DNA of 64,000 nt from an uncultured Burkholderiales bacterium. Its GTDB lineage: Bacteria; Actinomycetota; Acidimicrobiia; IMCC26256; JAGPDB01. The notes under the pieces are model-generated. The model saw only the letters and a list, made by a program, of their open reading frames with translations. It ran no database searches and was not told the DNA's origin. Position numbers and translations under genes: made by a program. The DNA is taken from the NCBI GenBank assembly GCA_964561855.1, contig CAZLQP010000002.1:64475-128474 (forward strand), written 5' to 3'. Below are positions 3,678-60,151 of the stretch, in pieces; position 1 is the first letter of the stretch; each line of letters opens with the position of its first letter.

Positions 3678-6215
3678 CTAACTAACTATTTGTAACGGAG
3701 GTGAGAGTGAAGCCATGAAAATTCGGATTTTGTCATCTGGAAAATCCACTTTAATCTCAACATCTCCGTTTCTTTGCTCTGAAACTTCTACTACTCTACC
3801 GGTTCCATATTTGGAGTGCTCAACAACTATACCGGCTTTAAAGGCATCGACATCAAAATCATCTGGGATCATGCTGAAATTCTCATCATTTACATCATCC
3901 GAAACATTACCCCATATTCGGTCGTGGATTTCTTGAGATGCTGCTCTATCTTGTTCGGCTCTTCTTTGCTTGTAGATAGAATTGCCGACGCTTTGCCCAA
4001 ATACTTTGCCACCACTGACTTCATCTGGGTGGATATCATCAAAGACCACATCGTCATATACATCTGAATATCTCGACTTGGGTCGAGATGGTTTTGAGCT
4101 TTGCTGAGTGTCATTAAAACCAGCAGGATCACGGTTAGCATTCACTAACTCGGCTGGGATTTCTCTTAAGAACCTGCTTGGCGAATAGTAATCTACAGAT
4201 GCATACATCATCCTCGACAGCGCACAGCTCAAATAGAGTTTTTCCATCGCCCTAGTAATACCCACATAACAAAGTCTGCGCTCTTCCTCTAGTTCTGAAA
4301 CATCTCCCATTGAGCGTTCATGTGGAAATAATCCTTCTTCTAATCCGACGATGAATACAACAGGAAATTCAAGGCCTTTGGCGCTGTGTAGAGTCATTAG
4401 CGTCACAAAATCTTCACTCTGATTTGTCTTATCTGATTCACTCAAAAGTGATACAGCTTCTAGAAAAGCATCGACTCTTTGTATTGAAGAATTGATATCA
4501 ACCAACCGCTCATCTTGGTCTCGAAATGCTTCCAATCGGTCTGAAAGGCCATCACTTTGCAATACTTTATTTGCAGTGCGCTCTGCATTTTTTTCTAAAG
4601 CCAAATCAAAATCATTAGCTTGTGTTACTAGTTCTATCAAGTTTTCAAGTCTTCCTTGAGATTCGAATGAACCCTCATCTTCTAATGCTTTAATATATCC
4701 AGTCTCTTTTAATAAGGAATCCAAAATGTCGGAAACTCTAAGCAATTTAGAATTAAGAATAGAATCGTATGCATCGTTTAAAGTTTCAAGACCTTTAATG
4801 ACTTTCTTTGAAACACCTATATTTTGAGCAGTCCTACAAGCCTCACCAAAAGAAACATCATTAATTCGAGCGTACTGTGCAATCTTTGAAACACTAGTTT
4901 CGCCAATTCCCCTTTTAGGTTCATTGATGATTCTTCGCCAAGATGCTTCGTCTGCTGGATTGACTAGCACCCGCAAATAAGCAATTGCATCTTTGACTTC
5001 TTTACGGTCATAAAACTTTGTACCCCCAATCAACTTATAAGGAATAGATCTTCTTATCAGCTGCTCTTCTATCAAACGCGATTGCGCATTTGTCCTATAA
5101 AAAACAGCAATATCATCGAAAGAATATTCTGATCTGAGCTCACTAATTGTCTCAGCTACATAATTTGATTCACCACGGTCGTCATTTGCATAATAAACAT
5201 TTATTTGTTCACCAAGACCTTTGTGAGAAACTAAATCTTTCTTATGTCTAGATGTGTTGTTTGATATAACCGCATTTGCAGCATTAAGAATGTTTTCTGT
5301 CGAACGATAGTTAGTGTTGAGCACAACTACTTCTGCATTTTGATATTGCTCTTCGAACCTCTGAAGATTTAGATGATCTGCTCCTCTAAATTTATAAATC
5401 GACTGGTCAGCATCACCTACTACTGTAATGTTTTTATGCTTTTGCGAGATTAGGTTCACTAGCTCCCATTGTGCAAGGTTTGTATCTTGGAACTCGTCGA
5501 CCAATACATGCGTGAAACGACTTTGATATTTTTCTCGCTTGTCTTCATGGTATTTTAAGAGTTCAACGCATTTAATCAAAAGATCGTCGAAATCAACGGC
5601 ATTAGCTGCCCGCAATCGGTGTTCATATTCGGCATATATCTTCGCAACAGTTGTTTGTGTCTCCATTTCGGCACGATCTAAAGCTTGGGCTGGCGTAATC
5701 AACTCATTTTTAAAACCGGAAATTGTCTTATATAAGCTTTTAGCTGCAAACCTTTTAGAATCGGCACCTATTTCTCGCCGCGAATACTCAATCAGCCTTG
5801 TTGCATCTGCAACATCATATATAGAAAAACCGCTTTTTACCCCAACTGGAGATCCATCAATACGCAATATACGAGCACAAGCAGAGTGAAAAGTAGATAC
5901 CCACATTCTTGCAGCAATAGGTCCGACTAAATGTGAAACGCGTTCAACCATTTCTGCTGCAGCTTTATTTGTAAACGTGATGGCTAAAATTTCGAATGGA
6001 GAAACTTTTTGTTCTGCAATTAAATAAGCAATTCTTCTAGTAAGCACTCGAGTTTTACCAGAACCGGCACCGGCCACTACTAACAGCGGGCCATTACCAT
6101 AGGTCACTGCATTATATTGCTGTTCGTTTAAATCCGCAGTAATTTCGTTCGAAGTACTTCTTAGCTCTTGATCTTGCAAAGATACGTCTGAGAAAATGTT
6201 CGCTGGAAAAGTCAC
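3678..6215 (-). CDS. pcrA: ATP-dependent DNA helicase PcrA/UvrD family with a long C-terminal tail ending in a Tudor-like segment
   Basis: 845 aa. Walker A AGAGSGKTRVLT, DEFQDT, and helicase motifs through VGITRA. The C-terminus has HSKYGTGRVVEV. Confidence 0.93.
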   Translation of the reverse strand: MTFPANIFSDVSLQDQELRSTSNEITADLNEQQYNAVTYGNGPLLVVAGAGSGKTRVLTRRIAYLIAEQKVSPFEILAITFTNKAAAEMVERVSHLVGPIAARMWVSTFHSACARILRIDGSPVGVKSGFSIYDVADATRLIEYSRREIGADSKRFAAKSLYKTISGFKNELITPAQALDRAEMETQTTVAKIYAEYEHRLRAANAVDFDDLLIKCVELLKYHEDKREKYQSRFTHVLVDEFQDTNLAQWELVNLISQKHKNITVVGDADQSIYKFRGADHLNLQRFEEQYQNAEVVVLNTNYRSTENILNAANAVISNNTSRHKKDLVSHKGLGEQINVYYANDDRGESNYVAETISELRSEYSFDDIAVFYRTNAQSRLIEEQLIRRSIPYKLIGGTKFYDRKEVKDAIAYLRVLVNPADEASWRRIINEPKRGIGETSVSKIAQYARINDVSFGEACRTAQNIGVSKKVIKGLETLNDAYDSILNSKLLRVSDILDSLLKETGYIKALEDEGSFESQGRLENLIELVTQANDFDLALEKNAERTANKVLQSDGLSDRLEAFRDQDERLVDINSSIQRVDAFLEAVSLLSESDKTNQSEDFVTLMTLHSAKGLEFPVVFIVGLEEGLFPHERSMGDVSELEEERRLCYVGITRAMEKLYLSCALSRMMYASVDYYSPSRFLREIPAELVNANRDPAGFNDTQQSSKPSRPKSRYSDVYDDVVFDDIHPDEVSGGKVFGQSVGNSIYKQRRAEQDRAASQEIHDRIWGNVSDDVNDENFSMIPDDFDVDAFKAGIVVEHSKYGTGRVVEVSEQRNGDVEIKVDFPDDKIRIFMASLSPPLQIVS

Positions 6216-25504: not shown

Positions 25505-26293
25505 CTAATAGGAGACGTTAACCAAGAATAGACCATGTGGCGGCGCAATTTGGGAGCCCAAAACTCGATCGGTACCTTGCAACATCAATTCGACGTATTC
25601 AAGAGAAATTTTTCCTTTCCCCACTTGAACAAGTACTCCAACGATTGAACGTACCATCTGCCAACAGAATGCATTTGCAGAAATTTCAAAGCAAATCAGT
25701 CCTTCTGAGCTGAGGCTAATCAAATGGCTTGGAGGATCAGCGAATCTAGCTGCTAGAACTTCGCGAATATTATGTTTAGAATTTGGGTCTTCCCGGCATA
25801 CGCTTGAAAAATCCTTCTCTCCAACAAAGTATTCTGCGGCTTTCGACATCGCATCTAGGTCAAGTTTATTTGGGATATGCCAAGAAAAATCGCAGCTAAA
25901 CATATCTATATTTTTGGAGTTATTTATGAGGTAATTATAAGTTCGAGATTTTGCAGAAAATCTTGCATGAAAATCTTCTTCAACTTCCACGATTTCAGAA
26001 AAGACTATTTCAGGATTTAATCGCTGATTCAAAACGTGTTTCAATCTTGAAATATCTAGGTCCATCTCTGGAGTGTCAGGAAAATTGAAGGACATAACCT
26101 GATGCAATGCGTGAACGCCTCGGTCAGTCCTTCCAGCAATAGCGAAATTTACATTTTGCTGAGCGACCATTTCAATGACTTCGCGAACTTTACCCATAAC
26201 TGTAGGTACACGATCTAAATCCTCTGAAGTTTGCTCGGCAACACCATGAAAATATTTCCCATGATAAGAAAACGTCGCCTTATAGTTCTTCAT
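25505..26293 (-). CDS. truA: tRNA pseudouridine(38-40) synthase
   Basis: 262 aa. GRTDRGVHA catalytic motif. Confidence 0.92.
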   Translation of the reverse strand: MKNYKATFSYHGKYFHGVAEQTSEDLDRVPTVMGKVREVIEMVAQQNVNFAIAGRTDRGVHALHQVMSFNFPDTPEMDLDISRLKHVLNQRLNPEIVFSEIVEVEEDFHARFSAKSRTYNYLINNSKNIDMFSCDFSWHIPNKLDLDAMSKAAEYFVGEKDFSSVCREDPNSKHNIREVLAARFADPPSHLISLSSEGLICFEISANAFCWQMVRSIVGVLVQVGKGKISLEYVELMLQGTDRVLGSQIAPPHGLFLVNVSY

Positions 26294-26357: not shown

Positions 26358-26470
26358 GTTTTGGCTCGATAAGTGAATCGTGAGCATTTGCAGCAAGTGA
26401 GGAGACCTTAGGCTCCGAACGTCCGCATAGCGGTGCGAAACAGCGAGCGATCGACTTATCGAGCCAAAAC
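26358..26470 (-). ncRNA. Unclassified multi-hairpin element, copy A (candidate structured RNA in the rplQ-truA spacer)
   Basis: 17-bp perfect outer stem (26358-26374 / 26454-26470) enclosing a 58-nt core (26384-26441). The core is 46/58 identical and co-linear with 59188-59245. The inner hairpins show compensatory changes. Confidence 0.6.
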
Positions 26471-26514: not shown

Positions 26515-26868
26515 CTATACGAGTTCGATGCGTGCCATTGGAGCTTTATCTCCAGGGCGTGTACCAAGCTTTAAGATACGTACATATCCACCTGGACGAG
26601 AAGAATACTTTGGAGCAATCTCTGTCACAAGCTTATTGACTACAGCTTTGTCGCGAAGGTCAGAAACAAGCTGACGTTGAACATGCTGAGAGTTTTCTTG
26701 ACGAGCTTTTGTGATCATCTTCTCTAGTTCTGGTCGCATGAACTTTGCTTTAGCTAACGTTGTTTCGATTGCACCGTATGTAAAGAATTGGCGTGCCAAG
26801 TTAGACACAATTAATTTTTGGTGCTTTGGATCGCGTCCGAATCGTTGTCCTTTTTTTGGAGTTGCCAT
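26515..26868 (-). CDS. rplQ: 50S ribosomal protein L17
   Basis: 117 aa. Follows rpoA. Confidence 0.96.
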   Translation of the reverse strand: MATPKKGQRFGRDPKHQKLIVSNLARQFFTYGAIETTLAKAKFMRPELEKMITKARQENSQHVQRQLVSDLRDKAVVNKLVTEIAPKYSSRPGGYVRILKLGTRPGDKAPMARIELV

Positions 26869-26879
26869 TTTTCTTTTCC

Positions 26880-27815
26880 TTAGTGCTTGTTAGGTAGTGC
26901 CAAACCACGTTCGTCAAGTTTTTCGATAACTTCATCGAGTGACTTTTGACCGAAGTTTGTAAGTGCCAATAATTCTTCTGGACTTTGTGAGAGTAGTTGT
27001 CCAATAGTTTCAATACGTGCTCGTCGTAAACAGTTACGAGGACGCTCTGAAAGATCAAGTTCATCTACGCTTAATTCTAGGTCTGGAGATGTTGTACTTG
27101 CAGGTGCAATTTCTCCAAGCTCAAGACCTTGTGGATTTTCTGAAAGTTCAGAAATGAGTTCCATCAAGTTCTTTACAGTTGAAGTAGCAGAAGCTAATGC
27201 TTCACGAGGAGTCATTGATCCATCTGTTTCAATTTCAATTGTAAGTTCATCGTAGTTTGTAGCTTGTTCTACACGGGTTGGTGCGACAGAATAGCTAACT
27301 CGACGTACTGGTGAATAAATTGCGTCAATTGGAATAATTCCTATAGTTCCACTTGCTTTTTGACGGTCAATTGCTTGATAACCTCGACCCTGTTCGATTG
27401 TGATATCACATTGGAATTGAGCTTTGTCGTTAAGGTTTGCGATCACCAAATTTGGATTGTAGATAGTCACTTCTGGACCTACTTGAATGTCGCCAGCAGT
27501 TACTTGTCCAGGACCACTCTTATCTATTCTTCCTGTTATAGGCTCATCTGCCTCACAAGAAACAACAACGTCTTTTAGATTCAAGATAACATCAGTAACG
27601 TCTTCTTTAACACCAGCAATAACATCAAATTCATGCAAAGCAGCATCGAATCTTACTTGTGTAATTGCAGCACCTGGAATAGACGAAAGCAATGTACGAC
27701 GTATTGAGTTACCTAGTGTCTGTCCGAATCCTGGCTCGAGTGGAGAGATAACAAACTTGCAAGTATTTCCTACTTGCTCTCCTGCTTCTACCTCTGGTCG
27801 TTGGATGATGAGCAT
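26880..27815 (-). CDS. rpoA: DNA-directed RNA polymerase alpha subunit
   Basis: 311 aa. LEPGFGQTLGNSIRR motif. Confidence 0.97.
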   Translation of the reverse strand: MLIIQRPEVEAGEQVGNTCKFVISPLEPGFGQTLGNSIRRTLLSSIPGAAITQVRFDAALHEFDVIAGVKEDVTDVILNLKDVVVSCEADEPITGRIDKSGPGQVTAGDIQVGPEVTIYNPNLVIANLNDKAQFQCDITIEQGRGYQAIDRQKASGTIGIIPIDAIYSPVRRVSYSVAPTRVEQATNYDELTIEIETDGSMTPREALASATSTVKNLMELISELSENPQGLELGEIAPASTTSPDLELSVDELDLSERPRNCLRRARIETIGQLLSQSPEELLALTNFGQKSLDEVIEKLDERGLALPNKH

Positions 27816-29828: not shown

Positions 29829-29853
29829 AAATTGGCAGCTATATTGCCAATTT
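29829..29853 (-). terminator. Intrinsic terminator of the 1457-aa gene (aaattggca / tgccaattt, 7-nt loop, then UUUCCAAUUUUUC)
   Basis: Read directly. The stem includes the stop codon. Confidence 0.65.
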
Positions 29854-32800
29854 AGCTCTCAATTTTGGGCATATGACGCCTTTTTCGTAATTCTCTTACT
29901 AAAAATGTAAGACCAACAATATTAAGTGCGACCAAAACAGAATAGATCAAAAAGGTGTTCAATTTTTTAGGATTGATATTGAGAGGATTTTTCTTAAGGT
30001 CATCAGAATCTGAATCGGCTTTAGGATTCGAGCTGGTAGCTTGACCCTCTGAATTTGTCTCATCTAACTCATCAACATCTTCAAAATCTGAGGATTCGAG
30101 ATTAGTTTGCGCCTGATTTTGCTCTCTTTGTTCATCGACAGGAAAATCCGATATTTGTGATGGGTAGAAACCAGCAAAGATTCCTTCTCGGATTTCTCCC
30201 TCACTCAAAACAAAGACATCTGATTGTTGACTCTCCGGATCGATTGAAGAAACGATAGTCTCTTCAATGCCCGTTCTCTTCGGGGACAAATCGAAACCTT
30301 GCGGGGTAACAAATTTGAGTTGATATCCTTCTGCAGGTAAAACATTTGTAAATTCTGCTACACCACTTTCATTAGTAGTTACAGAATCAAGCACTACTCC
30401 TTCTCTAAGTAGTTCAACTTCAATTCCTTCCAAGGCAATTTCATTTTCATCCGCAATACCATCTTCATTCTCATCCATCCAGGCATTTGCTCTAACTAAA
30501 GAATATGTTCCTATTTCGCTATAAGCAGTGTAAATATTGTTGTACGGGGTCGGATCATCAGACAAAACTGCGTTCGTCAATAACAACAAATTTCCTTGTG
30601 AACCTTCATCGACGCGAATCGTCAACTCGTAGACTTGAGAATCAAAGCCATCTAAATTGAAAGTCGGCCATTGGACTCTGTCTTCTATAAAAGTTCCCCC
30701 ACTCGAAGAAACATAAGAGGTATTAAGTGGCAAATAGCTAGTTAAATTAATATCCTGCGCTCTGGAAAGAGGGTCGTTACTTGCGATATTTGTAACCTCG
30801 ATTATGTAGTTAATAAGTTGCCCTGGAAATACTTTACCGGAATAGCCAGTTGTCGTTATTCGAATATCCGGAATACACATTTCTCCGTCTTCGTATTGCA
30901 CAATAGCTGTTGAACTTAAACCAACATTGTGAACTTCTTGAAGTTGATCTGTGACTTGAATCTGACCGGAATTCGTTAAGGGAGTAATAATATTGCATGC
31001 ATCTTCCACAACAGTTTGATAACAAATCTCAGGATCATCACCCGAAAATGTTAGAACTACCAGAGGATTCATATTTTCACTCGCCCACGGCAGCGAGTTA
31101 TTTGCTTTAAATTGAAAACTGGCTTCAAGTTCAGAATAGTCGTCAACTGAAATTCCAGAAATGTCTAGAATCCCCGGTTCTGTAACATTGCCCGCTACCG
31201 TCAAGAGATCGATCATCTCATAACCTGTGACAGGATTAGATTGCGAATCTACTATGGTGACGTAAAGCTCTGATAAGTCTTCGATCGAAGTACCGATCGG
31301 CATAACTAACTTTGCTTCATTCCAACTATCAACTTTCGAGGATAATACTTCGCAATAAAATCGTGAAGGCTCGACTGTAACATTTTGAGTATATCTTCTA
31401 CAAGGGGCACTTCCCGTTGATGCATCAAATGACCAGGTGTCACCATTTCTTCCTTTGGCCCATACGCATCCGTTATTGTCAGGTACATATCCAATATCGT
31501 TTGTATCACCAGTAACGCCAATTTCACTTGAGGTAATACCATTAAACGTCCAAGGATCCCATCTAGAAGAACCAGCTCCTTGATGACCAAAACCTGAACA
31601 CAAAGCATTCTCAGTCCAGTTGAAACATACAGCCTTACCCGATCTCGGAGAAGCTATTAGATATGCTTTTTCCCATGCAAAAATTGTGGCTTGATCGCCA
31701 TCTGAAAGAGTGACCTCAGCCGCATGAAATGTCGGCAAGAAGTTGGCCATATCAACGGCTTCTCTTCCGGCTGTAGTCACTGTATTGAGTTGGTCCGTAA
31801 TAGCTACTGATGTTCCTGTTTGTAAATCATTACAATTGATGCCCAAATATGTAAAGTTCTGTGGCCGGTAGGCAAATGCACAAACTGAATTATTGATTGG
31901 ATTTATGAATGGTTGTGTCAACCTGCAAAAACGGTCGTTGTAACAGTTAGGTCGAGGATTAGAAAAGTATCCGCCATCTCCATTACTGCAACGTCCATCT
32001 CCTGTAGTTGCATCAAAACAGACCAGTCGAGTTCCTTTGCAGATATCGACTACAAAATTACATCCAAAAATATCTAGATTCGATTCAAAAGCATAATTCA
32101 TGTAAATATACATCTTTGTGCCTTGCACTATCGATTGAGCAATAGGGCCAGTTGAGCCATAATCCGTATGATTAGCAGGAGTATATGCCGTTACAACTCC
32201 ACCATAAGAAGCTACAAGATCTTTGGTTGTATGACTCCCACATGGTGTAGAACCTATCGCAGGATCATAACTATAAACTTTCAACGTAATGTCATAGGTG
32301 AAAAGACAATCCCCAATTTTATTAAGTTGTTGAATGCGACTCTGGCGTTGACCTCCGAGGGGTGCGCCTGCGGAACTTAACTGTATGTATTCTTGCCCTT
32401 CACACATGTCGTTTGTATTTGTGTCAAAACAGACTATTCCGAAACCAAGATTTCTTTGTGTTGAAGTAAATATTCGACCGTCTTCATCTAAATAGTGCAA
32501 CGGTGTCACAGGAGAACGAAAATCGCTATTGCCTTGAGAATCATAAAAGTCTTTTGGATAACCTGCGCAGTTATCACCTGTTGCTTTTTCGACACACCCG
32601 ATATCGAACTTTCTCTGTCCAGGACCTTCACCTGCAAGAGTAGAAGTAAACAGTGTAAAAATTCTTTCTCCATGAACTATTGGAAGATATCCTGAATTGT
32701 CAGATGTTGAATTGGTAAATATTTCAGAAGTCTGAGTAACTTCTGCAGAATCTCCCTTCGCGCCGACAGGTACATTTTCTTTAGAAACTCTTATCGCATT

Positions 32801-34225
32801 TATTCCAGATAGATTTGATTCACTGGAAAAATTTTCTCCCCCATCATTCGAAAATTGCTTTATGTAACCAGGAGGAGTAACCAACGAGTCTTGAACATAC
32901 TGCTGACGAGACGATATTGTTTCATTCAAGAGTAAATCCATTGGAGAAGCTAAGTCATTTTGAATCGTAAATTTCCAGTTCATTTCTGAACCTGGTCTGA
33001 CTTCCTCTAATTCGTTGCCATTTTCATCGGTCAGCGTTTTTGAAGCTATCGAGATCGAAGTCCTTCCTCCGCCAGGGCCAAAAATTGAGTCTAAATAATC
33101 TGGAATTCCATCGCCATCAGAGTCATCATTACCTAAATTTCCGTCGCCGTTTACATCTTCTTCGATGTTCGTAATTCCATCGCCATCATAATCGTCGCTG
33201 TCTTCAGCACGATACGGTAAAACGAATTGAGGGTTTGCCATTCGTCTTCCTAGAGTTAATTGAGAAGCTGCGGTCAGGTGAATAAAGTCGGCTCCTCTCA
33301 ATAAATCTTCTGTTTCTACGACGAACGTTTTAGGGTCGCTATCAGCAATGTTTTGAATGGCTTGACGGACATTGTTATTGCCTTGAGTTACTTTTTCAAA
33401 AGTTGAACATGGATGGACTGCAAGTATGCAAACGCTAACGGCACATCCTGATGGATTGTAAATCAGATTGTAGACATTCGATAAACATTGCTGACCAGAG
33501 ATCTTTCCCAAAATATTGATTGCATCAGGATGCATCTCTAAATCCTGTTTAACCGAATCAAGCAGTTCTGTAAGGTTTGCCTGATAATTCTCCACAGTCT
33601 CTGCCTTTACAGCATCTGATTCCCCTTGCATCCAATAAAACGCGTCTATCGAATACGTATCGCCATTTGCCTGCATGATAGCTGCAAGATCAAGTCTTCT
33701 TTGTTTCAACATGTCATATGATTTTCCGACTGAATTAACATTCCAATCGGCAAGACCACCAAATTCGTTACTCGGAGTTTGAGCGAGTCTCTGCAAACCA
33801 TAGGTCACTTTCAAAAAGACCATGTTTCTTCGCCCTTGATCCCACAAGTTTCTTGCTATACCTATTTCAGGTCCAAAGTAATTTTTGGGTTGGACAGAAG
33901 TTAGCGGTAAAAGTTCAGTTGATGAACTATTAAATCTTGTAACAGTCAGTTGATCATCACCAGTAGACCACATAATTTTTGTTGCACTGTCTGCGGGATG
34001 ACTTCCAAGTGGAGGGTTCATTGAACTCACAAAGCTTGTATCGCCTTGTGCGTTTGATTGTCCTGCGAGAACTAGTACCGAATAGTGGGTTGAATTCTCG
34101 TTCGCTACAATTTCGTCTTGGCTTGTTAAAAATGTAGAAACGACCAAAACTGAAAGAATCACTCTTAATGCGTACGACAGTAAAGGTGTTTTATGTTTGA
34201 GCCTGAGAGTATGCAGAATTAACAC
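29852..34225 (-). CDS. Giant secreted/anchored multidomain surface protein: SGNH/SASA-type esterase-like domain, TSP3-like Ca-binding repeats, Cys-paired repeat region, DUF11-like and SdrD/Cna-B-like domains, acidic spacer, C-terminal TM anchor
   Basis: 1457 aa. N-terminal signal-like segment. VLVLAGQSNAQGD. DSDDYDGDGITNIEEDVNGDGNLGNDDSDGDGIPDYLD. SdrD-like DENEDGIADENEIALEGIEVEL. C-terminal hydrophobic helix plus RKRR. GTG start, uncertain. Confidence 0.8.
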   Translation of the reverse strand: MLILHTLRLKHKTPLLSYALRVILSVLVVSTFLTSQDEIVANENSTHYSVLVLAGQSNAQGDTSFVSSMNPPLGSHPADSATKIMWSTGDDQLTVTRFNSSSTELLPLTSVQPKNYFGPEIGIARNLWDQGRRNMVFLKVTYGLQRLAQTPSNEFGGLADWNVNSVGKSYDMLKQRRLDLAAIMQANGDTYSIDAFYWMQGESDAVKAETVENYQANLTELLDSVKQDLEMHPDAINILGKISGQQCLSNVYNLIYNPSGCAVSVCILAVHPCSTFEKVTQGNNNVRQAIQNIADSDPKTFVVETEDLLRGADFIHLTAASQLTLGRRMANPQFVLPYRAEDSDDYDGDGITNIEEDVNGDGNLGNDDSDGDGIPDYLDSIFGPGGGRTSISIASKTLTDENGNELEEVRPGSEMNWKFTIQNDLASPMDLLLNETISSRQQYVQDSLVTPPGYIKQFSNDGGENFSSESNLSGINAIRVSKENVPVGAKGDSAEVTQTSEIFTNSTSDNSGYLPIVHGERIFTLFTSTLAGEGPGQRKFDIGCVEKATGDNCAGYPKDFYDSQGNSDFRSPVTPLHYLDEDGRIFTSTQRNLGFGIVCFDTNTNDMCEGQEYIQLSSAGAPLGGQRQSRIQQLNKIGDCLFTYDITLKVYSYDPAIGSTPCGSHTTKDLVASYGGVVTAYTPANHTDYGSTGPIAQSIVQGTKMYIYMNYAFESNLDIFGCNFVVDICKGTRLVCFDATTGDGRCSNGDGGYFSNPRPNCYNDRFCRLTQPFINPINNSVCAFAYRPQNFTYLGINCNDLQTGTSVAITDQLNTVTTAGREAVDMANFLPTFHAAEVTLSDGDQATIFAWEKAYLIASPRSGKAVCFNWTENALCSGFGHQGAGSSRWDPWTFNGITSSEIGVTGDTNDIGYVPDNNGCVWAKGRNGDTWSFDASTGSAPCRRYTQNVTVEPSRFYCEVLSSKVDSWNEAKLVMPIGTSIEDLSELYVTIVDSQSNPVTGYEMIDLLTVAGNVTEPGILDISGISVDDYSELEASFQFKANNSLPWASENMNPLVVLTFSGDDPEICYQTVVEDACNIITPLTNSGQIQVTDQLQEVHNVGLSSTAIVQYEDGEMCIPDIRITTTGYSGKVFPGQLINYIIEVTNIASNDPLSRAQDINLTSYLPLNTSYVSSSGGTFIEDRVQWPTFNLDGFDSQVYELTIRVDEGSQGNLLLLTNAVLSDDPTPYNNIYTAYSEIGTYSLVRANAWMDENEDGIADENEIALEGIEVELLREGVVLDSVTTNESGVAEFTNVLPAEGYQLKFVTPQGFDLSPKRTGIEETIVSSIDPESQQSDVFVLSEGEIREGIFAGFYPSQISDFPVDEQREQNQAQTNLESSDFEDVDELDETNSEGQATSSNPKADSDSDDLKKNPLNINPKKLNTFLIYSVLVALNIVGLTFLVRELRKRRHMPKIES

Positions 34226-42713: not shown

Positions 42714-43652
42714 TTAGTCCTCCCCGCCTCTAAAGTGTGGAGTTTCATGTCCACCCTTAGCTGTACGGCGTTCGATTTCTTCTTCCTCTTCAAGAAGCTT
42801 TTCTAATTCAGGATCAGCTTCCGCGATAAGTGATTTTGATTCTTCAACAATTTCTGTGTCTTTGATTGAATCAACTTCAACTTCTTCAGCAACAACGCTT
42901 GATTTACGTTTTCCGCCACCTGATTTAACAACTCGCGGAGTTTCAGTAGTCGTAGCTCCTGAAGTTTCACCTGTTGCCATTGCTGCTTCACGAGCAATTT
43001 TGTCATCGGCAGAAACTTTGTAAGGAACAATGTCGCCTTTGTATAACCAAACTTTAACTCCGATACGACCAGCAACAGTTTTTGCAGAAACTGAACCATA
43101 ATCGATATCTGCACGAAGAGTATGTAGAGGAACTCGTCCTTCACGGTACCATTCAGTACGAGCCATTTCAGCCCCACCCAGACGACCTGAACATTGGATC
43201 TTAATTCCAAGTGCTCCAGCTTTAAGTGCAGTTTGAACTGCACGCTTCATTGCACGACGGAACGAAACACGTCCAGCAAGTTGATCCCCAACTCCTTGAG
43301 CCAACAACATTGCATCCAATTCTGGATTCTTAATTTCTTGAACATTTAATTGCGCTTTAGGATTACCAGTAATCTGCAAAAGCTTTCTGCGGTGCTTATC
43401 AATTTCTGCACCTTTACGTCCGATGACAATACCTGGACGTGCAGTAAATACATCTACACGTACACGATCTCCTGCGCGCTCGATTTCTATTCGGCTAAGA
43501 GCAGCGTGTTCTAATGCTGAAGTCAAATAAGCTCTGATTTTTGCATCTTGAATAACGTTTTCTGTATATTCAGTTCCAGATGCAAACCAGCGTGACTTCC
43601 AATCGGTTGTGTAACCTAGGCGGAAACCATAAGGATGAATTTTCTGACCCAT
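42714..43652 (-). CDS. rpsC: 30S ribosomal protein S3 with an acidic C-terminal extension of about 90 aa
   Basis: [14 protein letters not shown]-terminus. 312 aa, against the usual 210-240. Confidence 0.96.
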
Positions 43653-44479
43653 TATGCGTCACCTTCTTTTTCTTCAGTTTTCTTCGTAGTCTTCTTTGCC
43701 TTAGGCGCAGCTTCTGTGTCTTCTGATTCAGTCACGGCTTCGCGCCCTTCGGGACTCTCGGAGCCTGAGGTCTCCTCGATCGCTGCAGATGTTCCTTCAT
43801 CAGAATCCACCGCAGCTTCGCCAGCCTTCTTAGCCGTAGTCTTTTTTGAAGTCGATTTCTTAGAAGCAGGCTTTTTCTCAACTTCTGAAGAATCCTCTAC
43901 ATCCGAGTCGGCCTTCTTCTTAGCTGGAGCTTTTTTAGCTTTTGGCTTGTCTTGGATTACTTCTTCATCTTCTGAAATTTCTTCATCAGTTGAAGCTGAA
44001 GCTTCCTCTTTAGCTTTTTGTGCAGCCTTAGATGCTTCTGCACGACGTCTGCGCTGTTCACGAGCATTAGCTGCACCTGAATTAGCTTCTTTCTGAGATT
44101 TCTTTTCAATCTCTTCTTCGCTCATGCGTTCAACAATGATCGTGATGTGACATGTTCGTTTAAAGATTCGAGTACCTCGTCCACGCGCACGTGCCCGGAA
44201 ACGCTTCAGCGTTGGACCTTCATCAACAAATGCTTCCGAAACTTTCAGTTCCTCTGCTGGAATCTGGTTGTTGTGTTCAGCATTAGCTATTGCAGAGTTA
44301 AGAAGTTTTGAGACTTCATGTGCTGGTCCACGATCACAAAGCAAAAGCTCAACTTGCGCTGCTTCTACATCTTTGTTTCTGATTAGATTTACTACTTGGC
44401 GAACCTTGTATGGTGAAGTACCAATATACTTCGCTACAGCTCGCACCTTTGGGCGCTCTTGGAGCTCTGTATCAGCCAT
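43652..44479 (-). CDS. rplV: 50S ribosomal protein L22 with a Lys/Ala/Glu-rich C-terminal extension of about 155 aa
   Basis: The L22 core ends near ITIIVERM. Total length is 275 aa. Confidence 0.95.
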
Positions 44480-57035: not shown

Positions 57036-59120
57036 TTATTCGCCTTTTACTTTGGCAACGATTTCTTCTGCAATTGCACCAGGCACTTGTTCATAATTAT
57101 GGAACTGCATTGAATATGCTGCTCGACCTTGTGTCTTAGAACGAAGGTCATTTACATAACCGAACATGTTCGCTAGAGGAACTTTAGCTTTAATAACTTG
57201 AGAGTTACCTCGTTGTTCCATTCCTTCAACTTGTCCACGACGAGAGTTGATATCTCCAATCACATCACCCATGTAATCTTCTGGAGTTGTAACTTCCACA
57301 CTCATCACTGGCTCAAGCAAAACAGGTTTTGCTTTACGAGCAGCTTCTTTGAAGCCCATAAGTCCTGCAATACGGAAAGCCATTTCAGAAGAGTCAACAT
57401 CGTGGTAAGAACCATAAGTCAAATCTACTTTGACGTCTACCATTGGATAACCAGCCAATACACCAGTCTCCATTGCATCGATAATACCTTTTTCAACTGC
57501 TGGAATGTACTCGCGAGGAATAACACCACCGGTGATTGAGTTAACGAATTCAAATCCGCCGCCAGGACCAGAGGGCTCAACTGTAATAACAACATCAGCA
57601 TATTGTCCAGAACCACCAGATTGTTTAACGTGCTTGTATTGAACCTTCTCAACTTTTTGCGAAATAGTTTCACGATAAGCAACTTGAGGTTTACCAACGT
57701 TTGCATCAACATTGAATTCACGCTTCATTCGATCAACCAAAACTTCAAGGTGAAGCTCGCCCATACCGCGAATGATTGTCTGTCCTGTTTCTTCGTCAGT
57801 GTTGACCTTAAATGTTGGGTCTTCTTCCGAAAGCGAAGCTAGAGCTTTTGCAAGCTTGTCTTGATCGTTCTTTGTTTTAGGTTCGATTGCAACACTGATC
57901 ACAGGTTCTGGAAATTCCATATTTTCCAAGATGATCGGATTTGATTTGTCGCAAAGAGTATCACCAGTTGTTGTTTGCTTGAATCCAAGTCCAGCAACAA
58001 TGTCACCTGCGTATGCAACTTCAATATCTTCACGATCATTTGCATGCATACGAAGAAGTCGACCAATTCGTTCCTTCTTATCACGAGTCGAATTGTAAAG
58101 ATCTTGACCCTTTTCAATCTTTCCAGAATAAATACGGAAGTAAGTAAGTTTTCCATAAGGATCCGCTACAACCTTAAATGCAAGTGCAGAAAATGGTTCG
58201 TTGTCGTCTGCATGGCGCTCATCTGGAGTTTCGCCGTCCATTTTTGTTCCGTTAATTGAAGCAATATCTAACGGTGATGGAAGGTAATCTACAACAGCAT
58301 TAAGCATTGGCTGAACACCTTTGTTCTTAAATGCTGAACCACAAAGCACAGGAACAAATTCACCAGCGATTGTTCCCTTTCGAATTGCTCTCTTTAGTTC
58401 TGCTTCGGTGATCTCTTCATCGTTGAGGTATTTCTCCATGATCTCATCATCAGTAGCAGTTACAGAATCCAAAAGCAAGTGCCGGTATTCATCAGCTTGC
58501 GCTTTTAGTTCTGGACGAATCTCGCAAACTTCAAACTCTTGACCTTCACTTGGATCGTCTAGCGCCCATTTAACTTCTTTCATCTGAACAAGATCAACGA
58601 TTCCTTCAAAAATATCTTCTGATCCAATTGGTAAATGAAGTACTGCAGTAGTTGCACCAAGTCGTTCTTGAATCATTCCTAAACACATGAAGAAGTCTGC
58701 ACCCGTTCGGTCCATCTTGTTCACGAAACACATTCTTGGAACACCATATTTATCAGCTTGACGCCAAACAGTTTCTGATTGAGGTTCTACACCTGCAACA
58801 CCATCGAAAACTGCAACTGCACCATCGAGCACACGAAGTGAACGCTCAACTTCAACAGTGAAGTCAACGTGACCCGGTGTGTCAATAATTTGGATCATGT
58901 GGTCGTTCCACATACATGTTGTAGCAGCAGATGTAATGGTAATACCACGCTCTTGCTCTTGAGCCATGTGGTCCATCACTGCTCCACCTTCATGTACTTC
59001 ACCGATTTTGTATGTACGTCCGGTGTAATACAAGATACGTTCAGTAGTTGTTGTTTTACCGGCGTCGATGTGAGCCATGATTCCGATGTTGCGAACTTTT
59101 TCTAATGGGTGACGTGCCAT
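57036..59120 (-). CDS. fusA: Elongation factor G
   Basis: 694 aa. [20 protein letters not shown]. Confidence 0.98.
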
Positions 59121-59154
59121 TTTTTTCTTTCTTTCGTTTTTTAAATATCTTAGA

Positions 59155-59282
59155 GTTTGGTGGTGGATCCAGCGAGTATCTGAGATCGCATTTGCAGCGA
59201 GAGAAGAGACCTTAGGCTCTTCTCGTCAGCGAAGCTGCGCGAAACGCGATCGAAGATAGTCGCTGGGTTCACCACCGAAAAC
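59155..59282 (-). ncRNA. Unclassified multi-hairpin element, copy B (candidate structured RNA in the rpsG-fusA spacer)
   Basis: Imperfect outer stem of about 23 bp (59159-59181 / 59254-59276, extendable). gatcgc/gcgatc helix. 58-nt core at 59188-59245, homologous to 26384-26441. Confidence 0.6.
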
Positions 59283-59288
59283 CGAGTG

Positions 59289-59774
59289 TTACCATCTAAA
59301 GTGAGCAAATGCTTTGTTAGCTTCTGCCATCTTTTGAAGGTCATCACGTTTTTTGATTGATGTACCAACACCATTTGCTGCATCGATAATTTCTTGAGCA
59401 AGTCGTTGCGCCATAGTTTTTTCACGACGTTTACGAGAGTGCTCTACAATCCATCGAATAGCTAAAGTTGTTGCACGACGAGGCTTTACTTCAACTGGTA
59501 CTTGGTATGTTGCACCACCGACACGACGAGAACGAACTTCCAAAGCTGGACGAACATTTTCGATTGCTTTTTTCAGCGTTGGAATTGGATCTCCTGCTTG
59601 CGCATCTTCTGTTTTCTTTTCCTTGACAATTTCAAGTGCGTCATAAACAATTTTTGCTGCAACAGATTTTTTTCCGTGCAAAAGAATTTTGTTAATTAAT
59701 TGTTGAACTACAACTGAATGATAAATCGGATCAGGTAATAGTTCTCTTCTGGGAGCTGGACCTTTACGTGGCAT
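59289..59774 (-). CDS. rpsG: 30S ribosomal protein S7
   Basis: [18 protein letters not shown] ... AFAHFRW. Confidence 0.98.
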
Positions 59775-60151
59775 TAGGACTTAGCCTCCTTCTTCGCACC
59801 ATAACGACTTCGAGCTTGTTTACGATTTGCAACACCTGCAGCATCGAGTGTTCCTCGAACTACTTTGTATCGCACACCTGGAAGGTCCTTTACTCGACCT
59901 CCACGAACAAGAACGATTGAGTGCTCTTGAAGGTTATGACCAATACCTGGAATGTAAGCTGTTACTTCAACTCCAGTGCTTAGACGAACACGCGCTATTT
60001 TTCTTAGAGCTGAGTTCGGTTTACGAGGGGTAAGAGTTTTTACTTGGGTACATACTCCACGACGTTGTGGTGACCCTTTCAAAGCTGGTACCACAGATTT
60101 TGTGGTTTTATCTTTTCGTCCTTTACGAACGAGCTGTTCAATTGTTGGCAC
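59774..60151 (-). CDS. rpsL: 30S ribosomal protein S12
   Basis: [11 protein letters not shown]... [12 protein letters not shown] start 7 nt after AGGAG. Confidence 0.98.

Follow-up and report, generated by a model that had tools for sequence, protein, structure and literature searches.

A probable interspersed palindromic element with a conserved three-way-junction core in the rpsG-fusA spacer of an uncultured acidimicrobial lineage

What is the large structured element that fills most of the spacer between rpsG and fusA, and does it belong functionally to the ribosomal-protein genes beside which it lies? The spacer is 168 nt long, and the element, here called copy B, takes up 130 nt of it. 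An earlier note on this DNA had placed it on the minus strand, from 6 nt past the S7 stop to 34 nt ahead of the EF-G ATG, and had suggested that it might serve intercistronic regulation, mRNA stability or processing, or the binding of a ribosomal protein. Within the window (the whole stretch of DNA that was analysed, 64,000 nucleotides) the element was found again at the same coordinates, the outermost pairs of the minimum free energy (MFE) fold lying one base beyond the limits in that note on each side. Copy B has the shape of a long imperfect hairpin with a three-way junction as its cap. Its MFE is -66.5 kcal/mol, compared with -34.6 +/- 3.2 kcal/mol in dinucleotide shuffles (z = -10.1), and none of the 200 shuffles was as stable. 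The fold contains every helix described earlier: the outer stem, in which 4 of about 23 positions are mismatched, the GAUCGC/GCGAUC helix inside it, the fully paired P2 and the P3 hairpin. Immediately 3' of the element is the sequence AAACUCUAAGAUAUUUAAAAAACG. A near-identical contig (L002) differs from copy B by three substitutions, all of which lie in the arms, a single one on the 5' side and the other two on the 3' side, and are not compensatory.

Table 1. Coordinates in the window of the three element copies, their parts and the neighbouring genes.
Feature	Position	Strand	Score or remark
Copy B, entire element (arms and core)	59154..59283	-	outermost pairs of the MFE fold
Copy B core, 60-nt three-way junction (inner P1, P3, P2)	59188..59247	-	cmsearch R1 86.7 bits, E = 2e-20; R2 75.6 bits
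Copy B 5' arm of outer stem	59248..59283	-	pairs with 59154-59187
Copy B 5' block GUUUCGC, forming the 5' side of inner P1, conserved G.U	59239..59245	-	same in copies A to E
Copy B P3 hairpin CAGC-UUC-GCUG	59227..59237	-	covaries among copies
Copy B P2 hairpin GAGAAGAG-CC-UAA-GG-U-CUCUUCUC	59201..59224	-	apical GAGCC-UAA-GGUCUC conserved
Copy B 3' block GCUGCAAAUGC, always 7 nt past GGUCUC	59188..59198	-	sequence and spacing the same in copies A to E
Copy B 3' arm of outer stem	59154..59187	-	MFE fold
S12 gene	59774-60151	-	NCBIfam
rpsG (S7), upstream neighbour of copy B	59289..59774	-	TIGR01029, 214 bits
fusA (EF-G), downstream neighbour of copy B	57036..59120	-	TIGR00484, 1117 bits
Copy A, entire element, rplQ-truA spacer (core 26384-26443)	26358..26470	-	R1 84.8 bits
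RpoA gene	26880-27815	-	
L17 gene (rplQ)	26515-26868	-	NCBIfam
TruA gene	25505-26293	-	NCBIfam
Copy G core, antisense within rplV coding sequence	43735..43792	+	R1 48.5 bits, R2 77.1 bits
rplV (L22), host of copy G	43652..44479	-	PF00237 at residues 14-117

A second such element, copy A, lies in the spacer between rplQ and truA; it is 113 nt long and has an MFE of -48.6 kcal/mol (z = -6.0). The genes that flank copies A and B are all on the minus strand. When the two copies are aligned, the centre is nearly identical and the outer arms are unrelated, so that the 60-nt core common to both bears out the earlier claim that these are homologues, both placed 3' of a cistron for a ribosomal protein. 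The core has a fixed order: GUUUCGC, P3, ACG, P2 topped by GAGCC-UAA-GGUCUC, exactly 7 nt, and GCUGCAAAUGC. It folds as a three-way junction in which P3 and P2 branch off an inner P1, formed by GUUU-C-GCR with YGC-AAAU and containing a conserved G.U; the variable arms lengthen P1 outward. A composite pattern of the core occurs twice in the window, versus 0.00 occurrences expected, and a covariance model of the core (R1) scores copies A and B at 85-87 bits, with E about 1e-20. Such a search had been proposed in the earlier note, and it brought further copies to light as well. It is scarcely conceivable, given these values, that the likeness arose by chance between unrelated hairpins or ordinary terminators: hairpins are generally abundant after genes, which is all that speaks for this idea, but copies are also found in other genomes and the hairpins carry no U-tract. 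(An exact GCTGCAAATGC at position 5272 of the window was considered as a further copy; it lies in a helicase-like ORF, is accompanied by no other feature of the element and was set aside as chance.)

No promoter consensus and no U-run of the terminator kind was found at copy A or copy B, and an identity as intrinsic terminators, which would call for a GC-rich hairpin with a U-run behind it, was rejected for both. The element had also been read as non-coding at the rpsG-fusA junction, and two similar peptides of the ORF track as the mere translated image of the core. Both statements hold, as no frame is open across all of the intergenic copies and stops fall in varying frames. A search of the whole window with Rfam 15 at the gathering score gave 0 matches, and with copies A and B only meaningless matches appeared up to E = 10. 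Among known ribozymes and riboswitches, the hammerhead, twister, pistol, hatchet and HDV classes were considered and dismissed for want of Rfam similarity; by eye, the hammerhead consensus (CUGANGA...GAAA) and the R''/R' boxes of integron attC sites were also a poor fit. Full-text literature searches with the core sequences returned nothing relevant, and a keyword search on palindromic or repetitive elements of Acidimicrobiia surfaced no relevant paper among the matches listed.

How widely the core is distributed was followed with two covariance models. R1, built on copies A, B and E and a hand-drawn structure, recovered copies C, D and F and revealed copy G, and R2 was built from ten copies. 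Together the models account for 10 distinct copies, with E values from 1e-24 to 1e-16, in at least six genome types; the contigs that carry them have 41-46% GC (window, 41%). With its filters off, R2 finds just A, B and G in the window, i.e. 3 copies per 64 kb. The earlier inventory thus stands for A and B and had overlooked the third copy, G, which lies within rplV. The palindromic arms of copy G extend to about 43704-43822. Its host protein, L22, has 275 aa, including a 158-aa acidic, lysine-rich, low-complexity C-terminal extension past the Pfam domain; the copy corresponds to about residues 230-249, in this tail, and leaves the L22 domain intact. Part of the L22 tail is the antisense translation of copy G.

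Copies within coding sequence are found in a second type of protein, the E2 acyltransferase. Copy C lies in sense orientation in the Ala/Pro linker of an intact E2 gene on contig L021, whose product retains intact lipoyl, E3-binding and catalytic domains despite the core copy in the linker. Copies H and I lie antisense in both linkers of one E2 gene, and copy J lies in sense orientation in the linker of another; the ORF is intact in each case. (H, I and J were located through an alignment of E2 homologues, two of which were fetched and checked at the DNA level; in the homologue peptides the image of the core reads EP[KE]VS..AANA when sense and ET.GS....GREA when antisense.) The copies in coding sequence retain palindromic arms of 20-40 bp. 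Contig L021 (CAZFAO010000006.1; 46% GC) is labelled as an uncultured Burkholderiales MAG, and the nearest named homologues of its E2 protein are all from Acidimicrobiia; judged from these homologues and the GC content, the Burkholderiales label is probably a binning or labelling error.

The remaining copies are intergenic. On L029, copy D separates tRNA-Thr from tRNA-Met, runs in the same orientation as the tRNAs and has a stem of 21 bp that is perfectly paired. Copy E occupies the rpsG-fusA junction of the L037 lineage, and has the loop CCUAGGG and arms that are shorter than, and unlike, those of copy B. Copy F occupies the rplQ-truA junction of a distant genome and has a diverged core (GUUUCGA, CCUAAUGU, CUGCAAAUGU), with a perfect 8-bp P2 of wholly different sequence (GAGUCGAA/UUCGACUC). 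Each of the five intergenic copies (A, B, D, E and F) stands between co-oriented genes, and all five are co-oriented with transcription as judged from the gene layout. Beside copy E, a second GCTGCAAATGC block is found 30 nt 3' of the element, i.e. GCTGCAAATGCGAG at L037 10600-10613; this orphan GCTGCAAATGCGAG is without a matching 5' half, and may be what is left of an earlier copy at this site.

The family appears to be thinly spread in the material searched. R2 with its filters off found no new copy in 262 kb of related loci, and about 150 kb of flanks picked independently of the presence of a copy held none. A profile of the antisense-frame peptide, run against 1.84 billion representative proteins, gave one further real match, a 42-aa ORF, and two other matches that were rejected as WD40 false positives. 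The 42-aa mini-ORF (P0397; MMADDVTNISERTSTAKDETTGSSRPEGREAVHLSKKLLEKI) carries an antisense-frame image of the core, and is probably a spurious gene call across another intergenic copy. A loose core pattern had 14 matches among viral contigs, all dismissed as chance, and a strict pattern permitting the loop variant had none there. Pattern scans of genome contigs and of metagenomes each yielded a single real match, L021 (the other 9 of 10 being chance) and L029 (the other 5 of 6 being chance), respectively; these two scans undercount, because the strict CCTAAGG misses loop variants such as those of copies E and F. Given the few copies found by R2 and the single peptide match, the family is small.

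Comparison of the copies supports the drawn structure. Across the ten copies, 88% of the pair cells are paired, versus 33-44% when the partners are slid by 1-3 columns, with the qualification that the alignment was fitted to the model, so that these pairing figures lean towards the structure; the pairing of P2 and P3 is also legible directly from the sequences. Changes on both sides of a pair are seen for 8 of 21 pairs, all of them in P2 or P3. In P3, 3 of 4 pairs have changed in this way and 100% of the cells are paired (variants include CCGC/GCGG, UCUGGC/GCCAGA and CCGGC/GCCGG). In P2, 5 of 10 pairs have changed on both sides and the apical part is invariant, reading GAGCC-UAR-GGUCUC across the family. 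P1 is nearly invariant, and its first pair is a G.U in 9 of the 10 copies.

Constraint on the core is far stronger than on its surroundings. Copies A, B, C, D and E agree at about 33 core positions that are unpaired or apical, while four-fold degenerate sites compared between the window and the L037 lineage have 0.46-0.55 identity, which is near saturation. The arms of A and B have nothing in common even though the two copies lie in the same genome, and the arms of B have no sequence kinship to those of D and E either. An invariant core with unrelated arms, at a distance where synonymous sites are saturated, argues for selection on the core, be it for competence to propagate or for a function in the host. 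Plain decay after insertion does not fit, since the core has been kept; recent copying from one master does not fit, since the arms differ. Core substitutions are more numerous in the copies within coding sequence and in F than in the canonical intergenic copies.

A conserved junction with covarying stems and a variable closing helix is the usual signature of a small ribozyme or aptamer, and the element sits within highly expressed transcription units. It might accordingly be asked whether the core is a small catalytic or trans-acting RNA, i.e. a new self-cleaving ribozyme or a processed sRNA embedded in abundant transcripts. This seems improbable. Beyond the lack of similarity to Rfam ribozymes, a junction with strands of 0-1, 2-3 and 4 nt does not match a hammerhead core by eye, and cleavage by the antisense or in-frame copies would be harmful. 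Moreover, folding does not favour the gene-sense strand: its complement is the more stable of the two in 10 of 10 copies, and in 9 of 10 when the arms are considered alone, many of the sense-strand mismatches being A.C. As far as these predicted folds go, such a bias argues against optimisation of the fold for the mRNA sense.

The presence of the element was compared at orthologous junctions, which were fetched through relatives of S7 and L17 (the window's S7 assigns it to Acidimicrobiia and clusters at >=90% identity with several MAG lineages). At rpsG-fusA, the element is present in 2 of 6 lineages, and at rplQ-truA in 2 of 5. The rpsG-fusA junction is without it in two groups of contigs despite an S7 that is 92% identical: L035/36, which has another long hairpin, and L047-56, where a long terminator hairpin is accompanied by an insertion, a DUF559/MTES_1575 gene for a 327-aa product. 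It is likewise missing from rpsG-fusA in L057, and in L003/4 (S7 86% identical) a terminator and then other genes stand in its place. At rplQ-truA, the element is missing from L058-61 (terminator), L066-68 (terminator and a 344-aa gene) and L069-71. A third state is seen in L063/L065, which have kept the core and 5' arm of copy F and lost the 3' arm.

Several of these relatives have features of their own at the junctions. The hairpin of L035 (10487-10600) is distinct, with z = -4.9 and an unrelated interior, and some stable hairpin lies directly 3' of rpsG in every lineage examined. The DUF559/MTES_1575 gene, which is restriction-endonuclease-like, lies at L047 10626-11609, exactly between rpsG and fusA, and is also found in L048-L056. 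The 344-aa gene, between rplQ and truA at L066 4453-5487 (also in L067), has no Pfam domain. The 327-aa and 344-aa products have no homology to each other, and since these inserted genes are unrelated they give no hint of a common autonomous partner. At L003 1254-1418, a terminator comes next after rpsG, and then an ORF of 54 aa and a gene for carbonic anhydrase; since fusA does not follow rpsG, the str operon is broken there. Elsewhere in the window, a 1457-aa ORF (29852-34225, minus strand), without an NCBIfam match, lies between adk and the S13-S11-S4-rpoA block, and at the corresponding position upstream of infA the relatives L058 and L062 have a large NHL-repeat protein.

The suggestion that the element is a ribosomal-protein binding site can be judged against this distribution. 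According to this idea, S7 (at copy B) and L17 (at copy A) would bind a mimic of rRNA and so control the neighbouring cistrons. The position of A and B directly 3' of ribosomal-protein genes speaks for it, and there is a precedent in the L17DE motif, a structured element downstream of rplQ. But one and the same core would need to bind two unrelated proteins, and that core is also found between tRNAs, within the L22 coding sequence and in the linkers of E2; it is absent from the same two junctions in several close relatives, and the Rfam search, even at E = 10, returned neither a ribosomal-protein leader nor L17DE. The link to ribosomal proteins drawn in the earlier note is contradicted by these findings, and an autoregulatory site is very improbable. 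An annotation as an S7 or L17 regulatory site was tempting but wrong, and has been removed.

A broader version of the host-function idea has more in its favour. The element could be a cis-acting structured RNA selected by the host, its core a module for a nuclease or RNA-binding protein that marks points of processing or stabilisation within highly expressed polycistronic transcripts (after rpsG, after rplQ and between tRNAs) and so takes the part that a terminator plays in sister genomes, with the copies in coding sequence being decaying or exapted by-products. The invariance of the unpaired core, in hosts whose synonymous sites are saturated, and the covariation of P2 and P3 are what would be expected of such an RNA; so are the occupation of orthologous junctions by A and F and by B and E, the uniform sense orientation of the five intergenic copies, the conservation of the P1 G.U pairs on the sense strand only, the intrinsic terminators found after rpsG or rplQ where the element is missing, and the greater number of core substitutions in F and in the copies within coding sequence. 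In particular, the perfect but differently sequenced P2 of copy F, at the same junction as copy A, looks, on comparison of the two, like locus-by-locus purifying selection and hence function. Yet the element is patchy among close relatives; the arms of B and E, at the same junction, are unrelated and of unequal length, and E has the orphan half-core next to it; the 3' arm has been lost in L063/L065 with the rest kept; the complementary strand folds better in every copy; copies with long arms lie within coding sequence in both orientations; and no known RNA family is matched. Host selection is a rather unlikely reading, though it is the serious rival to an interspersed element.

Taken together, these results suggest that copy B belongs to a family of interspersed palindromic elements with few copies, a reading to which a probability of roughly 0.6 can be assigned. 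It is based on the dispersal of the element to unrelated sites, on copies that lie in frame in disordered protein segments whichever way they face, on junctions that are occupied in one close relative and vacant in another, and on the half-core left over next to copy E. The non-homologous arms of B and E, together with that orphan block, suggest repeated insertion at the same junction, as far as the aligned copies can tell. The family members are about 110-140 nt long and are so far confined to an uncultured, low-GC (about 41-46%) clade of Acidimicrobiia; their sites are the spacers of two operons, one spacer between tRNA genes, the disordered C-terminal extension of L22 and the two E2 linkers. 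Several points count against the interspersed-element reading: the invariance of the core, the P2 of copy F, the low copy number, the single further protein matched by the peptide profile and the sense orientation of 5 of 5 intergenic copies. Further, no transposase was recognised in the gene calls and Pfam annotation next to the copies. Conserved terminal inverted repeats were not found, only a loose GGUUU...AAACC with which A, B and E begin and end. Inspection by eye for target-site duplications showed no consistent direct repeat (ACUC flanks B only), and none of the junctions compared formed an exact filled/empty pair.

As an interspersed element, the family would spread, or would have spread in the past, as DNA through machinery acting in trans, and would persist where harm is small, i.e. 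in transcribed spacers and in disordered protein segments. The core itself would be what a partner recognises, either the machinery of propagation or a host factor. Copy B would be co-transcribed within the str operon, and as a by-product its hairpin could act, in the manner of REP, ERIC and Correia hairpins, as a barrier to 3' exonucleases or as an RNase III or RNase E site, thereby uncoupling S12-S7 from fusA. Such a processing role is plausible, and not more, because sister genomes have a terminator at the same position. An effect on the processing or stability of the polycistronic mRNA is thus possible by analogy with other transcribed repeats, as a secondary property of a dispersed repeat.

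The strict conservation of the core, set against its patchy occurrence, would mean either that a partner acting in trans reads the core or that an RNA punctuates highly expressed operons. A tentative and somewhat doubtful extension joins these possibilities: the core would be a functional module under purifying selection at each locus, a recognition site for a nuclease, recombinase or RNA-binding protein or perhaps a new small ribozyme, that serves as operon punctuation in place of terminators after ribosomal-protein genes and between tRNAs, that can be duplicated to new sites, and that can be exapted as linker code. Whichever applies, a repeat family is now documented in an uncultured actinobacterial lineage without an Rfam match. 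Its architecture is unusual, with an invariant internal three-way junction and free arms in the place usually taken by conserved terminal repeats. It also displays the behaviour of a palindrome inside a protein for which the Rickettsia palindromic elements (RPEs) became notable, contributing sequence to the L22 tail, which is disordered, and to the flexible E2 linkers.

How does this family relate to known systems? Its likeness to the ribosomal-protein leaders and to L17DE is limited to the position of copy A directly 3' of rplQ; it differs from them in lacking a match to their Rfam models, in occurring in other contexts too and in the lack of conservation of the junction among relatives. RPEs are closer. 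They insert in frame in unrelated genes and add a peptide segment without destroying the gene (PMC10969869). The present family resembles them in its palindromic units of about 100-150 bp, in the lack of a transposase of its own and in having both intergenic and in-frame copies (here in the L22 tail and the E2 linkers). However, RPEs belong to another phylum (the host here is an actinomycetote), so that the likeness is one of description and no sequence relationship is expected; in addition, the copy number here is low, only two host proteins (L22 and E2) have been seen to carry copies in their coding sequence, and RPE families are not described as having an invariant 60-nt core with free arms.

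Transcribed palindromes that alter mRNA decay are known as well, ERIC and Correia elements doing so via RNase E or RNase III (PMC10969869). ERIC is an imperfect palindrome of about 127 bp in transcribed operon spacers of enterobacteria. Like the present family, ERIC and REP sequences have a centre conserved above neutral expectation and vary in presence between strains, and they influence mRNA decay (through an RNase E site; PMC10969869). In contrast, ERIC copies share their full sequence, including the inverted repeats, rather than only a 60-nt core; ERIC may face either way, whereas every one of the five intergenic copies here is sense; and there is no sequence similarity, as judged from the Rfam search. 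Correia elements and other MITEs are likewise short, non-autonomous, dispersed and polymorphic between genomes, and Correia elements, too, are transcribed as hairpins, which are cut by RNase III (PMC10969869). MITEs, however, are defined by conserved terminal inverted repeats that match those of a parent IS and by duplication of the target site; the present copies showed no conserved terminal repeats and, by eye, no consistent duplication, and here the conserved part is internal rather than terminal. By these comparisons, the family appears to be an undescribed repeat that resembles the RPE, ERIC, REP and Correia families but lies outside them.
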